The translations under genes and the position numbers were made by a program. 58,566 nucleotides of DNA from an uncultured Gammaproteobacteria bacterium (GTDB taxonomy: Bacteria; Patescibacteriota; Microgenomatia; JAMCZE01): assembly GCA_964431075.1 (NCBI GenBank), contig CAYSID010000001.1:1-58566 (forward strand). The letters are read 5' to 3'. Below, in pieces: positions 9,232-41,756 of the stretch (its first letter is position 1; each line of letters begins with the position of its first letter). The notes under the pieces are model-generated. The model saw only the letters and a list, made by a program, of their open reading frames with translations. It was not told the DNA's origin and did not search any database.

Positions 9232-9913
9232 GGAATAAGTTTAGCACGTTTTGTAAATCAGCGGGCAACGGACTCTCATAGGTTTTGCCTAAAATGGTTA
9301 ATGATGCCGCGTGCAGGAATAACCGCGGGCAGAATTTGAGGTCTTCACGAATTTGCTTTCTCCCCCCATAAATCGGATCGCTAACTATTGGGTGATTAAT
9401 ATATTTCATATGAACCCTTATTTGATGGGTTCGACCGGTTTTTGGTTGTACCTCTAATAAAGTAAACTGCATTCCTGTATGCCTGCATATCTGTATAGCT
9501 TTATAGATGGTTTCGGCCTCCCGTCCTCCCGGAAACACCCCAAAACGTGTCCGGTTAAAGGGATTCCGTCCAATTGGGACATTAACCGTTCCGGATGGCG
9601 GTTCTACCGCCCCGTGAACTAAAGCATAATATTTTTTTATTGTTTCCCTGTTTTGAAACGGCAACTTTAATTTACTGTAACTTTCGGGGGTTTTGGCAAT
9701 CACTAAAACCCCAGACGTGTCTTTGTCTAAACGATGGACAATCCCCGATTTTTCATAAAATTCGGTTTGGGAATTTGGAATTTGGAATTTGGAATTTAAC
9801 CAGTCCTGTATTGTCTCTTGATTTTTTGTCGTCTCGGCATTATTAACGGTAATCCCCCACGGCTTATCAACAACTAAAAGACTTTCGTCCTCAAAAATTA
9901 TTTTTACATCCAT
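9221..9913 (-). CDS. RluA-family pseudouridine synthase (no S4 domain)
   Basis: 230 aa. Catalytic HRLDKDTSGVLV and GRTHQIRVH motifs. Contains the 7-bp tandem repeat at 9770..9797. Confidence 0.88.
   Translation of the reverse strand: MDVKIIFEDESLLVVDKPWGITVNNAETTKNQETIQDWLNSKFQIPNSQTEFYEKSGIVHRLDKDTSGVLVIAKTPESYSKLKLPFQNRETIKKYYALVHGAVEPPSGTVNVPIGRNPFNRTRFGVFPGGREAETIYKAIQICRHTGMQFTLLEVQPKTGRTHQIRVHMKYINHPIVSDPIYGGRKQIREDLKFCPRLFLHAASLTILGKTYESPLPADLQNVLNLFHGE
9770..9797. repeat. Tandem repeat (GGAATTT)x4 inside the rluA-family coding sequence
   Basis: Four perfect 7-bp units read directly. They are translated as KFQIPNSQ. Confidence 0.9.
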
Positions 9914-12622: not shown

Positions 12623-12745
12623 TTACGACGCTCTCTTCCCCTCCACCAGATTAAATCTTAATTTATTCCCGGTGAACAGGAAGTTGAACTCGCCGAGGGC
12701 GCCGTTGCGGTGTTTTGCCACCTGTAGGTTAATAGGAATTTTTAT
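12623..12745 (-). pseudogene. Orphan copy of the dnaB 3' end (last ~40 codons plus stop)
   Basis: Minus strand reads KFPINLQVAKHRNGALGEFNFLFTGNKLRFNLVEGKRAS*, against the DnaB tail KIPVNLQVAKHRNGALGEFNFLFTGNKLRFNLVEGKRGS*. 12636..12715 is 80/80 identical to 13504..13583. An upstream in-frame TAA truncates it. Confidence 0.85.
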
Positions 12746-12829
12746 ATGACAATTTTTATATGACAGGGTCAGACCCTGTCACTTATAGTACACGCACAAA
12801 ATTACCCTTGACAGGGTCAGACCCTGACA
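12737..12829 (+). repeat. REP-like hairpins and short direct repeats upstream of the Y1 transposase gene
   Basis: ATTTTTATATGACA occurs twice in tandem. Palindromes TGACAGGGTCAGACCCTGTCA (12761..12781) and TGACAGGGTCAGACCCTGACA (12809..12829) are in the same orientation. Confidence 0.8.
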
Positions 12830-13495
12830 TGTTAAACTAAATTGTGCCGAGAAAAAACTCCAGAAAAATTTATTTTGAGAATGGATTTTACCATGTATAC
12901 AATCGTGGGGTCGAAAAGCGGGAAATTTTTATGGAACCGGCTGACTATGCGTTTTTTCTTCATCTAATTAAAGGGGCTCTGTCCCCACCTGAAAAGCAAA
13001 AACTTTTTGATGAAGGCATTTTTCGTCCACGACGTAAAAATTTCTACGGGAAAATTGATCTTTTATGCTATGTTTTAATGCCAAACCATTTTCATTTCAT
13101 CTTACGTCAAAACGATAAATCAACTATCACTGAATTTATTCGCTCAATTTTGACTTCTTATTCAATGTATTTTAATAAAAAATACGGTCGTGTTGGGGCT
13201 TTATTTCAAGGGGTTTTTAAAGCCATCGATATCCATGAGGAAAATCATCTTTTATGGTTGAGTCGTTATATTCACTTAAATCCAATAAATTTTACAAACT
13301 ACCCTTACTCTTCTTATGATGACTATTTACAAAAGAAAAATACCTCATGGATTAATAAATCGTTAATTTTAGATTATTTTAGCTCTAATCCACTCAAAAA
13401 AAGTAAAAATTATCAGGAGTTTGTCGAGAATAAGAAAAATAATGAAGGCATGGATTTGGAAAATCTCACTCTAGAATCCGATGATCTTGATTAAC
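12746..13495 (+). mobile_element. IS200/IS605-like or REPtron-like cassette (Y1/HUH transposase plus subterminal hairpins) inserted at the dnaB 3' end
   Basis: Bracketed by the two dnaB-tail copies. Contains the hairpins and the transposase ORF. Boundaries are inferred from where the duplicated homology ends. Confidence 0.55.
12844..13494 (+). CDS. Y1 (HUH) transposase, IS200-like / REP-associated tyrosine transposase (RayT-like) family
   Basis: 216 aa, GTG start. FYHVYNRGVEKREIF, HUH motif LMPNHFHFIL, and catalytic-Tyr region WLSRYIHLNP. Its stop overlaps the convergent dnaB stop. Confidence 0.8.
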   Translation: MPRKNSRKIYFENGFYHVYNRGVEKREIFMEPADYAFFLHLIKGALSPPEKQKLFDEGIFRPRRKNFYGKIDLLCYVLMPNHFHFILRQNDKSTITEFIRSILTSYSMYFNKKYGRVGALFQGVFKAIDIHEENHLLWLSRYIHLNPINFTNYPYSSYDDYLQKKNTSWINKSLILDYFSSNPLKKSKNYQEFVENKKNNEGMDLENLTLESDDLD

Positions 13496-17727: not shown

Positions 17728-18622
17728 CCTTCCCATTCTCGCCATTATTATTTCCAACCTGATTTGGGGGGCAACGCCGCCGATTATGAAATTAACTTTG
17801 GAAACGGTCCCGGTTTTTTTTCTCGCCTTCGGCCGCTTTTTAATCGCCTGTCTAATCCTCTACCCCCTCCTTCACACCAAGTTAAAATACTCCGATCTTA
17901 AAAATAAATTTCTTTGGATCTACGCCCTGTGCGGGGTAACCTTAAATATTTCCCTTTTTTTTCTGGCCCTAAAATTCACTTCTTCCATCAACGCTTCAAT
18001 TATCGGCGCCGCCGCCCCGCTGATTATCTTTATTTTCAGCATTCTTATTCTTAAAGAGACCGTTAAAAAACGGGAAATAATCGGCATGGGGGTCGCTTTT
18101 GCCGGAATTATGTTGGTTGTGTTGGAGCCCGTTTTAATTTACGGATTAAACGGCCATGTTTTTGGCAATATCCTGATGATTCTGGCCACCTTGGGAGCGG
18201 TCGCCGCCACCCTTGCCGGCCGAAAGTTTTTAACGGCTAAAAATGCTTACCCCCTGACCTTTTGGATTTTCTTTATCGGGATGTTTTCTTTTTTGCCCCT
18301 TGCTCTTTTAGAATATTTTACTAATCCGACGGCAATCTCTAACATTGATTTAAAAGGGGTTTTGGGCTTCGCCTTCGGGGGTATTTTTGCTTCGACCATC
18401 GCCTATGGAGCCCATAATTTTGCCCTCTCCCGTTTACCAGCCCACGAAGTGAGCGTTTTTACTTACATGGATCCGGTCATTGCTGTTTTAATCGCCATTC
18501 CCCTTTTGGGTGAAAAAATCACTTTTCCGTTTATTTTTGGCTCAATCTTAATTTTTACCGGCATCTTCATCGCCGAAAAACGCCTCCACTGGCACCCACT
18601 ACACAAACTCTTAAAAAAATAA
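17711..18622 (+). CDS. EamA/DMT-family transporter
   Basis: 303 aa, about 10 TM helices arranged as two EamA-like halves. Confidence 0.75.
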   Translation: MVNKINLPILAIIISNLIWGATPPIMKLTLETVPVFFLAFGRFLIACLILYPLLHTKLKYSDLKNKFLWIYALCGVTLNISLFFLALKFTSSINASIIGAAAPLIIFIFSILILKETVKKREIIGMGVAFAGIMLVVLEPVLIYGLNGHVFGNILMILATLGAVAATLAGRKFLTAKNAYPLTFWIFFIGMFSFLPLALLEYFTNPTAISNIDLKGVLGFAFGGIFASTIAYGAHNFALSRLPAHEVSVFTYMDPVIAVLIAIPLLGEKITFPFIFGSILIFTGIFIAEKRLHWHPLHKLLKK

Positions 18623-18634
18623 TATAATAAAGGG

Positions 18635-18934
18635 GTGAAAGCAAATATTCACCCGCAATATTATTCCGATGCGAAGGTTACTTGCGCTTGCGGGAACACT
18701 TTTACCGTTGGCTCAACAAAACCGACGATTCACGTTGACTTGTGTCATAAATGCCACCCATTCTACACCGGGGTCCAAAAATTTGCCGACACTGAAGGAA
18801 ATATCCAAAAATTTGAGAAAAAACAAAAAGTCGCCGCCGCCAAACAAGCCGTAATAAAAGTTAGAAAAGAGGAAAAAGCCAAGGAGGAATTTCGTCCCAA
18901 AACACTTCGGGAAATGTTATTGGCACAACAGTAG
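18635..18934 (+). CDS. rpmE: 50S ribosomal protein L31
   Basis: 99 aa, GTG start. MKANIHPQYY...C.CG..F...ST....VD.C..CHPFYTG, with a K/E-rich C-terminal extension. Confidence 0.9.
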   Translation: MKANIHPQYYSDAKVTCACGNTFTVGSTKPTIHVDLCHKCHPFYTGVQKFADTEGNIQKFEKKQKVAAAKQAVIKVRKEEKAKEEFRPKTLREMLLAQQ

Positions 18935-18970
18935 TTCATGGTTCATTGTAGAGATCGTTCATAGTAGAAT
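18933..18970 (+). repeat. GTTCATTGTAGAA-family repeat, copy 1
   Basis: AGTTCATGGTTCATTGTAGAGATCGTTCATAGTAGAAT lies immediately after the rpmE stop. It is related to the copies at 19491..19527 (inverted) and 41681..41755. Confidence 0.8.
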
Positions 18971-18976
18971 ATATTT

Positions 18977-19327
18977 ATGTTTAGTTTTGAAAAACTAATT
19001 GTCTATCAAGAATCAATTAATTTCTCGGATAAAATTTATAAAATTACCAAAACTTGGCCAAAAGAGGAGTTATTTGGATTGACAAACCAGATAAGACGCG
19101 CGTCAGTATCTATTGCTTTAAACATTGCTGAGAGTTCAAGCCGGACCAAAAAAGATTTCTGTCACTTTCTTGATCTTTCTCGCGGATCATGTTATGAAGT
19201 CGCTGCTACCCTGCTTATTGCCAGAAAAAATGATTATATTAATGAGTTACAATACAAAAATCTCTATGATAATTGTTCTTATTTAGCAAGCATGATAAGT
19301 GCTCTAAAAAAATCTATACATGAGTAA
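18977..19327 (+). CDS. Four-helix-bundle protein (23S rRNA intervening-sequence protein / Avd-like family)
   Basis: 116 aa. FEKLIVYQESINFSDKIYKITKTWPKEELFGLTNQIRRASVSIALNIAE...SRGSCYEV is the characteristic signature of this family. Confidence 0.8.
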   Translation: MFSFEKLIVYQESINFSDKIYKITKTWPKEELFGLTNQIRRASVSIALNIAESSSRTKKDFCHFLDLSRGSCYEVAATLLIARKNDYINELQYKNLYDNCSYLASMISALKKSIHE

Positions 19328-20246
19328 TAATATTCCCGATTATTTAAAAACCCAAATCGACGAAATTGATAAGAAAATTGTTGAGGCTAAATCTTTGCTC
19401 TCTGACCCTGCTTTTGTGGAAATGGCCAACGAAGATGTTAAACGGCTTGAAAACGAGAAAGAACTATTGCTGTTATCTATTAATTCTGCTTCTACTATGA
19501 ACAATGAACGAAATTCTACAATGAACTCTTACGACAATCGCGATTTATTTATAGAAATTCGCGGAGCGGCGGGAGGCGATGAAGCTAAAATCTGGGGAGA
19601 AGATTTACTCAATATGTACTCAAAATATGCTACAACCCAAGGATGGCAAGTCACTCGAGAAGAACCATTAATGATTAAAATTCATGGCCGCGGAGCCTAT
19701 GGAAAATTAAAATACGAATCGGGTGTTCATCGCGTTCAAAGAGTCCCGGTGACGGAATCCTCGGGGCGAATTCACACTTCGACGGCAACGGTCGCTATTA
19801 TCCCCGAACTTGATGATATTGATGTTCAAATCAACCCTGCCGATATTGAAGAACAGTTTTTCCGCTCCGGCGGGAAGGGGGGCCAAAATGTCAATAAAGT
19901 CTCCTCGGCAGTTCGATTGACCCATATCCCAACCGGAACCGTGGTGACTTGTCAGGATGAACGGGATCAGGGAAAAAACCGGACGAAAGCAATGAACCGC
20001 TTGCGGCAAGTATTGTGGGAAAAAGAGCAGGAACGGCAGACGGCGGAGCTGTCAGCCGAACGCCGTGCCCAAATCGGCACCGGGATGCGCAATGAAAAAA
20101 TCCGCACTTATAATTTCCTGCAGGATCGGGTCACCGATCACCGCCTCGACCAAAATTTTCACAATATCCAAAAAATCATGGAGGGTAATATTTCGGAAAT
20201 AATTACCGCCCTCCAAACAAAATTTACTCAAATCGCTCAAAACTAG
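19320..20246 (+). CDS. prfA: Peptide chain release factor 1 (shortened N-terminal domain)
   Basis: 308 aa. RF1-type PVT tripeptide (RVQRVPVTES), GGQ motif (SGGKGGQNVNKV) and IEIRGAAGGDEA. Carries an in-frame repeat insertion at 19491..19527. Confidence 0.9.
   Translation: MSNNIPDYLKTQIDEIDKKIVEAKSLLSDPAFVEMANEDVKRLENEKELLLLSINSASTMNNERNSTMNSYDNRDLFIEIRGAAGGDEAKIWGEDLLNMYSKYATTQGWQVTREEPLMIKIHGRGAYGKLKYESGVHRVQRVPVTESSGRIHTSTATVAIIPELDDIDVQINPADIEEQFFRSGGKGGQNVNKVSSAVRLTHIPTGTVVTCQDERDQGKNRTKAMNRLRQVLWEKEQERQTAELSAERRAQIGTGMRNEKIRTYNFLQDRVTDHRLDQNFHNIQKIMEGNISEIITALQTKFTQIAQN
19491..19527 (-). repeat. GTTCATTGTAGAA-family repeat, copy 2 (inverted, inside the prfA coding sequence)
   Basis: The reverse complement AGTTCATTGTAGAATTTCGTTCATTGTTCATAGTAGA matches copy 3 at 30 of its first 31 positions. 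It is translated in frame as STMNNERNSTMNS. Confidence 0.85.
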
Positions 20247-22533: not shown

Positions 22534-23781
22534 CTACAAAAGTTTAATCGCCTCGATCAATTGAGTATCAATATCAGGCGTTTTCTCATCGTTTTCTATT
22601 TTAACATCCGGCGTCAAGCCCGTGCTATTGATCCAAACACCTGATGGTAAGAGCCACTTGGAAACGGTAACGTGCAACCCGGCCCCGCCGGGCAAGTCCT
22701 GCGCTTCCTGTACCGATCCTTTACCGAACGACTTGATTCCAACCAGCTTGACCCGTTTGTGATCGCGCAGCGCCCCGGCCAAAATCTCCGACGCCGAGGC
22801 CGAACCTTCATTTATCAGCACCACCAAAGGAATCTCCAGCAATTTTCCGGTTCTTGCCACTTTATATTCCTCGCTCGTCCCATTGTTATTGTCCTGTTTA
22901 ACCACTAACAAGCCTTGTTTTAAAAACTCGCTGGCAACATAAACCGCGCCCTGCAGGTAGCCACCAGGATTATTTCTCAGATCTAAAATTATTCCTTTAA
23001 TTTTGAATTTTGAATTTTGAATTTTAATTTCGTCGATAATCCTGTCCCAATCATTATTGGTATCTTCGCCAAATCTTGAGAGCCTTAAATAAACGAGATT
23101 GCTGTTAAGTGCAGCCGATCCGGTGGCATCAATTGTTTTCCACTCGACCGACTTGATCGTTATGACGTCACGAATTATATCGAATTCGAGCGGTTTCTCC
23201 GTTCCCTCGCGAACTATGGACAAATGAACATTAGTGTTTTTTGGCCCGCGAATTTTAGAGACCGTTTCCGGCAGGCTCCAATTATAAGTCTCGTTGCCGT
23301 CCACTTTTATTATCCAATCCGCGGACTTAAGGCCAACCACCTCCGCCGGGGAACCGGAAAGCGGCGCGACGACAATAATCCTTTTTTCCCTAACCCCCAA
23401 CTGGGCCCCGATTCCCTCAAAACTGCCGTTCAAACTCTCCTTGCTCTCCTTGTTTTCCTTCGGGGGAAGAAAAACCGTGTACGGGTCACCAATGCCGGCA
23501 ACCATTCCGGAAATTGCTCCCCACACCATTTTCTGGGGTTCTATTTTGGTTTTATCCACATACTGCGAGCTTACCCGGTTCCAGACTTCCCAAAACAGGG
23601 AAAAATCCGCCGGCGCGGGGTTTTGAGGCAGCCGATTTTCAATCTTAAATTCCGGGCGGAAATTTTTAATCTGCACCGCCACTCCTTCAAGCCCCGCTCG
23701 GTAACCAACACCACCACACAAAATCCCAAAAGTAAGAATAATTATTAAATTTCTAAACAAATTTAATTTAATTTTCATCAA
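22534..23781 (-). CDS. ctpA: S41-family carboxyl-terminal processing peptidase
   Basis: 415 aa. N-terminal TM helix, PDZ domain, LDLRNNPGGYL and GSASASEILAGAL motifs. Contains a 7-bp tandem repeat. Confidence 0.9.
   Translation of the reverse strand: MMKIKLNLFRNLIIILTFGILCGGVGYRAGLEGVAVQIKNFRPEFKIENRLPQNPAPADFSLFWEVWNRVSSQYVDKTKIEPQKMVWGAISGMVAGIGDPYTVFLPPKENKESKESLNGSFEGIGAQLGVREKRIIVVAPLSGSPAEVVGLKSADWIIKVDGNETYNWSLPETVSKIRGPKNTNVHLSIVREGTEKPLEFDIIRDVITIKSVEWKTIDATGSAALNSNLVYLRLSRFGEDTNNDWDRIIDEIKIQNSKFKIKGIILDLRNNPGGYLQGAVYVASEFLKQGLLVVKQDNNNGTSEEYKVARTGKLLEIPLVVLINEGSASASEILAGALRDHKRVKLVGIKSFGKGSVQEAQDLPGGAGLHVTVSKWLLPSGVWINSTGLTPDVKIENDEKTPDIDTQLIEAIKLL
23004..23024. repeat. Tandem repeat (TGAATTT)x3 inside the ctpA coding sequence
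   Basis: Read directly, flanked by TAATTT variants. Translated as IQNSKFKIK. Confidence 0.85.
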
Positions 23782-41680: not shown

Positions 41681-41755
41681 AGTTCATTGTAGAATTACGT
41701 TCATTGTTCATCGTCTCGCGTTCTACCATAAACTATGAACTTCGTCTACTATCAA
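41681..41755 (+). repeat. GTTCATTGTAGAA-family repeat, copy 3 (composite forward plus inverted units)
   Basis: AGTTCATTGTAGAATTACGTTCATTGTTCAT...TTCTACCATAAACTATGAAC TTCGTCTACTATCAAC fills the whole rpsU-yqeY intergenic gap. Confidence 0.8.
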
Positions 41756-41756
41756 C

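Follow-up and report, generated by a model that had tools for sequence, protein, structure and literature searches.

What are two inverted copies of a short repeat doing on either side of a small gene, with one of the copies translated inside the gene for RF1? The question is raised by a stretch of 58,566 nucleotides (contig CAYSID010000001.1 of assembly GCA_964431075.1; the window) that belongs to a genome of the candidate phyla radiation (CPR)/Patescibacteria, which comprises 871 kb in 60 contigs at 44% G+C (G000). The enclosed gene encodes a protein of family PF05635 (23S rRNA intervening-sequence protein/Avd-like four-helix bundle), and is flanked by the genes for ribosomal protein L31 (rpmE) and RF1 (prfA). 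We find it probable that the two copies represent the arms, left and right, of a hairpin cassette of the intervening-sequence (IVS) type around this gene, the right arm of which would have been placed in a permissive, low-complexity linker of RF1 and translated there without a net gain in length. Proteins of this family are widespread, being found in rRNA IVSs, as relatives of Avd of diversity-generating retroelements (DGRs), and in many copies in CPR genomes. To our knowledge, they have no known function outside DGRs. All sequences used here are contigs of metagenome-assembled genomes (MAGs), and arm boundaries are approximate because of the heptamer register.

A PF05635 gene between inverted heptamer arrays

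The rpmE gene (18635-18934, plus strand; PF01197, 9e-28) ends in a TAG stop codon that passes directly into the left arm (18933-18970, plus strand), which begins on the last bases of the stop and is made up of the units GTTCATg, GTTCATt, GTAGAga, a tc dinucleotide, GTTCATa and GTAGAat. The sequence of this copy is AGTTCATGGTTCATTGTAGAGATCGTTCATAGTAGAAT, with the rpmE stop continuing into AGTTCATgGTTCATtGTAGAgatcGTTCATaGTAGAat. Six nucleotides (6 nt) separate the end of the arm from the start codon of the PF05635 gene (18977-19327, plus strand), whose product of 116 aa matches the family at 4e-35 (120.7 bits against a cut-off of 33.8), and whose stop codon overlaps the start of prfA (ATGAGTAA). 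The right arm is an inverted heptamer array inside prfA (RF1, 308 aa; 19320-20246, plus strand). It occupies 19491-19527 on the minus strand, the DNA as written there being TCTACtATGAACaATGAACgaaatTCTACaATGAACt, and is found not directly after the PF05635 gene but 165 nt past its stop codon, so that codons 1-57 of prfA fall within the loop between the two arms. In the prfA frame the arm reads STMNNERNSTMNS, also given as STMNNERNSTMN(S), preceding IEIRGAAGGDEA, and is positioned in the linker that joins the N-terminal helical domain of RF1 to IEIRGAAGG. An earlier sequence-only reading of the window had described two inverted, related copies that enclose the PF05635 gene and the first 57 codons of prfA, the second of them translated in frame, and all of this was confirmed; the match between the reverse complement of copy 2 and the sequence from 41681 onward, at 30 of the first 31 positions, was also reproduced.

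We compared this locus with the corresponding region of other genomes. The sister genome (G001) has an rpmE that is 89.5% identical and an RF1 C-domain that is 85-86% identical to those of G000, and the two form sisters in the RF1 tree with a support of 100/99. In G001 the TAG of rpmE is directly followed by the ATG of prfA, with no four-helix-bundle gene and no GTTCAT array in prfA; the PF05635 gene and both arms are absent from the sister genome. Among 14 readable relatives of the family, a PF05635 gene is present at the rpmE-prfA site only in G004 and G010, and the gene and both arms are present or absent jointly in these 14 relatives. TCTAC-type repeats in the prfA linker of G004 match the genome's own left arm, and the prfA-linker repeats of G010 are related but degenerate. 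Metagenome contigs provided three more lineages with the rpmE-gene-prfA layout, in which the four-helix-bundle protein is 84% (L144/L145), 64% (L147) and 58% (L149) identical to that of G000. Judged by the cassette protein, the nearest named relatives are MAGs of Levy-, Davies- and Roizmanbacteria.

Six rpmE-PF05635-prfA loci (G000, L145, L147, G004, L149 and G010) could be compared arm by arm. At the five loci besides G000, too, a left arm precedes the gene and a stretch of repeats is found in the prfA linker. The longest perfect inverted match between the left spacer of a locus and its own prfA linker was 13 nt in G000, 13 in L145, 14 in L147, 11 in G004, 12 in L149 and 6 in G010, whereas matches across loci reached 5-9 nt, except for the 13 nt between G000 and L145, which have one arm type in common. 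Cognate arm matching was seen in five of the six loci, representing four distinct arm types, each altered on both sides (GTTCATAGTAGAA, CGGTTCACAGTAGA, GTTCATCGTAG and CGTGGCTCGTAG). Since arm types differ between lineages and yet stay complementary within a locus, the comparison indicates that the prfA copy is the partner arm of the cassette, and no unrelated insertion.

The cassette-bearing lineages are scattered over the RF1 tree. No single origin of the cassette could be read from this tree, which is too poorly resolved; its well-supported branches force at least two changes. Exchange of the whole module from arm to arm was rejected: the RF1 N-domains of G000 and G001 are 55% identical and the C-domains 85%, but this difference is no evidence for exchange, because N- and C-domain identity is uncorrelated over all 78 family pairs (slope -0.04). 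Across the RF1 proteins of 13 family members, the identity of the N-terminal helical domain of 40 residues is ~57 ± 7% and that of the C-terminal 180 residues 69-90%, and the lack of correlation includes the closest pairs. A separate arrangement was observed in G002 (L002, 2420-2590 and 2900-3400, minus strand), where a palindromic element of ~170 nt lies in the rpmE-prfA spacer and a PF05635 gene upstream of rpmE is bracketed by ATGAGCAATCATCAAT / ATTGATGATTG...ATTGCTCAT arms.

The RF1 linker and the wider repeat family

Does the right arm add residues to RF1, as the sequence-only reading had proposed when it took the copy for an in-frame insertion? Measured between the conserved LExEK and EIRG, the linker has 31 residues in G000 and 26-35 residues in 16 relatives, most of them without the DNA repeat. 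Alignment therefore speaks against the proposed insertion, and this is the outcome by which the sequence-only reading had said it would be refuted: as far as linker length can tell, the right arm is in frame but is no net insertion in RF1. The statement that this stretch is longer than in E. coli RF1 roughly fits PDB alignment coordinates, but the extra length is a trait of the whole family and is not specific to the GTTCAT repeat.

The motif is, as had been suspected, a genome-wide family. Its building blocks are the heptamers GTTCATN and GTAGANN. The 12-mer core GTTCATWGTAGA has 14 exact matches in the 871-kb genome, against ~0.2 expected, and when at most one mismatch was allowed, 7 matches were found in the window against 0.27 in shuffles. 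Genome-wide, GTTCATNGTTCAT occurs 20 times, and the looser GTTCATNGTWSA occurs 40 times, against 0 for a control pattern read backwards. A frequent composite is GTAGA-N4-5-GTTCAT-N-GTTCAT-N-GTAGA, with up to four GTTCATN units in one copy. GTTCATN-family copies have 1 to 4 units, a number that varies, in arrays of 20-40 nt, and the family is spread over ~20 loci. The gene-less member at 41681-41756, to which no strand is assigned, is a forward array with a degenerate inverted array behind it; it occupies the spacer that separates rpsU from a downstream open reading frame (ORF) of 144 aa, both of them on the minus strand. Copies of the family number 40, 10 and 9 in the cassette-bearing genomes and 0-9 in other genomes; G002 has 9 copies yet no rpmE-prfA cassette.

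Period 7 is enriched in G000 well beyond this one family. We counted 43 arrays of at least three units with period 7, against 18 with period 6 and 1 each with periods 8 and 9, and the period-7 arrays comprise several unit families. The commonest of these are (GGAATTT)4 and (TGAATTT)4 with related GAAATTT/GAATTTT arrays, which occur at 9767-9798 and 22996-23027 of the window and on many other contigs; none of them could be linked to a cognate PF05635 gene. A second heptamer family, (TANCCCC)n, was found at ~7 loci in G001 and at 6 in G000 (C3:41892, C4:13905, C4:23802, C8:10954, C8:23532 and C10:1348), against ~0.05 expected by chance. In G001, (TANCCCC)4 arrays lie in the RF1 linker (locus L011, SNPSPLSPNPS) and in a loop of TrxB (L131, SSPYPLAPNPL).

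Gene-less copies of the GTTCAT family are also read in frame in at least ten other genes, at loops or inter-domain linkers as judged from Pfam boundaries. These genes encode UvrB (between the UvrB and UVR domains), a UvrD-like helicase-nuclease (both arms between UvrD_C and PDDEXK), TrxB, MiaA, peptidyl-tRNA hydrolase (Pth; (GTTCATN)3 read as VHSSLFIV, G000 C8:18489-18517), Fe/Mn superoxide dismutase (between its two domains), a YfhO-like protein, a GT2 glycosyltransferase, a glucan phosphorylase and a ComF-like protein. In about 12 of 15 copies inside coding sequences, TCTAC/ATGAAC is the strand read by the gene (S-T-M-N...). Six of these genes were compared with their orthologues in five relatives, where the corresponding place holds a variable segment that is as long or longer; in the YfhO-like protein equal length is kept in 6/6 genomes. 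At the array in Pth the Pfam profile loses ~30 positions, which means that the array stands in for part of the protein and is no addition to it. We also asked whether the repeats at these loops are of a kind peculiar to each genome. Over seven loops and five relatives k-mer sharing was not significant (7/99 within-genome pairs against 23/396 between-genome pairs), and only the TrxB-RF1 pair of G001 stands out. The linker of the UvrD-like protein holds an inverted pair, (GTTCATN)4 ... (NATGAAC)2, in G000 (C17:15459-15556) and another, (GTCACTN)3 ... (NAGTGAC)-type, in G004 (L114); the positions of the two pairs are identical, the heptamers are different, and each pair is self-complementary.

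The sequence-only reading had asked whether the same repeat flanks four-helix-bundle genes elsewhere in the genome. It does not: each of them has arms of its own, with the inverted heptamers GATGATA (C2), GTTTAAN (C8) and AATTGCC (C27), while a cut PF05635 gene on C21 has similar ATGAAC units upstream. To place these observations on a broader footing, 128 homologues were taken from genome and metagenome collections, and positions shifted by 700 nt served as controls. A flanking inverted-repeat score of 12 or more was obtained at 91 of the 128 homologous loci and at 2 of 219 shifted controls. The PF05635 gene family is generally associated with inverted arms.

Two close homologues are found in other settings, one between gatA and gatB in a Daviesbacteria MAG (L043, 1444-1900) and the other ahead of a heavy-metal ATPase gene in a Levyibacteriota MAG (L031, 1426-1900); the right arm supplies the first ~15 residues of the downstream protein in both, namely MNKQRTNELTNNEP... 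(GatB in L043) and MKNNQELITNNQ... (L031). In G000 itself, a reverse-transcriptase fragment at a contig edge (C28:5-178) adjoins another PF05635 (Avd-like) gene (C28:900-1202), and a full RVT_1 gene is present on C45:996-1658. Together these are probably a DGR split by the assembly.

Explanations for the paired arms

How might the arms of the proposed cassette work? We suggest, tentatively and by analogy with IVSs, as their most likely role, that they pair in the rpmE-gene-prfA transcript. An interrupted stem of ~30 bp would close a loop of ~520 nt and bury the 6-10 nt upstream of the four-helix-bundle gene's start codon. This stem could be a substrate for RNase III, which is encoded in the G000 genome, as in 23S rRNA IVSs, and ribosomes translating the prfA linker would melt it. 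A promoter-like site, TACACA-17-TATAAT, is present upstream of rpmE (18600-18628, plus strand; consensus scan only), and no terminator-like site was seen in a consensus scan of the plus strand from rpmE to the end of prfA. The arms share perfect complementary blocks of 12-13 nt. In the whole 58-kb window, the best plus-strand partner of the left arm is the prfA copy, at -34.2 kcal/mol against a background with a mean of -11.1 and a standard deviation of 3.1 kcal/mol, and the long-range stem between the arms is present in both the minimum-free-energy and the centroid fold of 18920-19540 (621 nt). Adjacent inverted pairs of arrays elsewhere also fold, with z = -5.4 in the rplV-rpsC spacer and z = -3.2 in the UvrD-like gene.

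Several observations weigh against the cassette reading or against pairing of its arms as RNA. The 621-nt fold as a whole was not more stable than shuffles (z = -0.07). In a test of G.U asymmetry, the sense duplex was favoured over the antisense duplex at none of the six loci and was the weaker one at four of them (-28.5 vs -43.8, -42.3 vs -55.0, -24.1 vs -38.2 and -41.3 vs -48.2); G.U asymmetry therefore gives no hint that the sense RNA is under selection. Cognate arms match in long, perfect Watson-Crick blocks, which fit copying at the level of DNA equally well. Cutting by RNase III at the stem would cleave the prfA mRNA, which looks costly. Moreover, the arms of G010 are degenerate, as noted above, and L144 and L145 are probably one population.

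A possible, if somewhat unlikely, alternative is concerted evolution of the DNA with no role for RNA. Here the arrays would be kept alike by short-patch gene conversion or template switching, dispersed copies would arise by ectopic conversion and slippage, and the arms would be selfish or neutral by-products around PF05635 genes. The perfect blocks shared by cognate arms, which are followed by abrupt decay, are in line with this, as are the lack of a G.U asymmetry in favour of sense RNA, the overwriting of variable loops at constant length by copies inside coding sequences (for example, in the YfhO-like protein), the excess of period-7 arrays over those of periods 8 and 9, and the change in unit number from 1 to 4 between copies. 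However, arms of ~35 nt at a distance of 540 nt lend themselves poorly to homologous conversion, and neutral arrays in an essential gene should decay, whereas both arms persist at the same positions despite protein identities of 58-84%. The rRNA relatives, in addition, are known as substrates of RNase III.

Could the PF05635 protein itself act on the repeats? It is unlikely, though compatible with the sequences compared here, that PF05635 genes and their heptamer arms form a self-propagating unit, whose protein would recognise its own 7-base repeat and seed or overwrite copies of the arms. Among the new sites would be permissive linkers, read in frame, of essential genes such as those for RF1, UvrB, TrxB and MiaA, and each lineage would come to have a dialect of the repeat to itself at sites that recur. 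The sister genome, with (TANCCCC)n arrays in both its RF1 linker and its TrxB loop, is in line with this reading. That the arrays are binding sites in DNA or RNA read by the PF05635 protein, with the gene-less copies as its regulon or as targets of propagation, we regard as decidedly unlikely. Arm divergence does track that of the protein, the arms being the same at 84% identity, one-base variants at 60-64%, and built of another heptamer at 55-58%; GTTCAT/GTTCGT-type heptamers accompany distant homologues from other phyla (L033, L038 and L051), every PF05635 gene of G000 has its own heptamer, and the GTTCAT family is most abundant in cassette-bearing genomes. Nevertheless, G002 reaches 9 copies with no cassette at rpmE-prfA, and the closest homologues, L031, L043 and L032 (59-63%), have different heptamers.

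It is highly improbable that an autonomous small mobile repeat, resembling a Rickettsia palindromic element (RPE), a repetitive extragenic palindrome (REP) or a miniature inverted-repeat transposable element (MITE), inserted in frame in prfA and is near the PF05635 gene only by coincidence, for although the motif is dispersed over ~20 loci, is read in frame at inter-domain linkers in at least ten housekeeping genes, and has arrays that end in GTAGA, reminiscent of the GTAG tag of REPs, which are known in repair genes (PMC3733652), neither RF1 nor six other genes show a net insertion, single arrays are folded no more stably than shuffles (z of -0.1 or higher), the motif is within 700 nt of none of four Y1 transposase genes, no target duplication was found (no direct repeat abuts the arms), the gene and both arms occur or are missing together in 14 relatives, and cognate arms of four types match in five of six loci.

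If the two copies are indeed arms of an IVS-type cassette, the hairpin packaging seen in rRNA would also occur in a protein-coding operon, and one arm of a cassette could reside in an essential gene as translated sequence, with the arms co-varying across lineages. The locus would offer a compact system consisting of one stem, one RNase III and one small protein, with prfA expression as the read-out. Low-complexity linkers of CPR housekeeping proteins appear, moreover, to be shaped in part by the dynamics of DNA repeats, and not by selection on the protein, which matters for the annotation and alignment of CPR genomes.

Relation to known systems

The sequence-only reading had likened the structure to RPEs or to a MITE. 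Like RPEs, the present copies are repeated DNA read in frame in housekeeping genes at structurally permissive sites. RPEs, however, are self-palindromic, 100-150 bp long and bring in an additional peptide segment, whereas the present arrays are 20-40 nt long, have unfolded units and add no residues in comparison with orthologues. A MITE is likewise not supported, as there is no target-site duplication and the interior consists of a gene and 57 homologous prfA codons.

Like REP/REPIN elements with their RAYT transposases (PMC3733652), the arrays are short, occur dispersed, frequently form inverted pairs where neighbouring genes are co-directional, lie in some cases within repair genes, and have a GTAG-like end. 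This candidate was rejected, since the unit is no palindrome and none of the four Y1_Tnp genes of G000 is flanked by the motif, dimers of which are absent up to 700 nt from each gene. In the window, the Y1 transposase-like gene is flanked by another hairpin, GACAGGGTCAGACCCTGTC (12740-12830), and a similar palindrome, AAGGGTCGGACCCTT, is translated within a loop of MiaA in G001 (L121).

PF05635 resembles Avd (PMC10053308). A DGR is not indicated at the locus, which lacks a reverse transcriptase, a template/variable repeat pair and any direct repeat pair; reverse-transcriptase matches were found only on C45 and C28, and the present arms differ from the DGR setting of Avd in being inverted and only 35 nt long. 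The GGGNATC heptamers of Xanthomonas and Nostoc (PMC4692102) are similar in their period-7 enrichment, their variable number of units and their location between aligned ORFs; the present unit differs in that it is not G-rich, forms inverted pairs around one gene family and is often found in coding regions.

The locus is better likened to the ORF-bearing IVS of 23S rRNA in Coxiella and Leptospira (S23p). In Coxiella burnetii, the stem of the IVS in helix 45 of 23S rRNA is 28 bp long and its loop carries a PF05635 ORF, whose start codon is preceded by GACAGAT tandem heptamers; RNase III cleaves in this stem (PMC4990558). PF05635 ORFs have also been reported in rRNA insertions of CPR bacteria, where they were called functionally uncharacterised (PMC11270868). 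Two differences are apparent: the present cassette lies between two protein genes of one probable operon and not in rRNA, and its right arm is translated and placed beyond the ORF, so that the loop takes in 57 prfA codons. Common to the two are terminal inverted repeats that form a stem with a PF05635 ORF in its loop, heptamers in tandem at the start of the ORF, a patchy distribution and a host gene for RNase III. In all but its location outside rRNA, the locus has the structure of an IVS-type PF05635 cassette.

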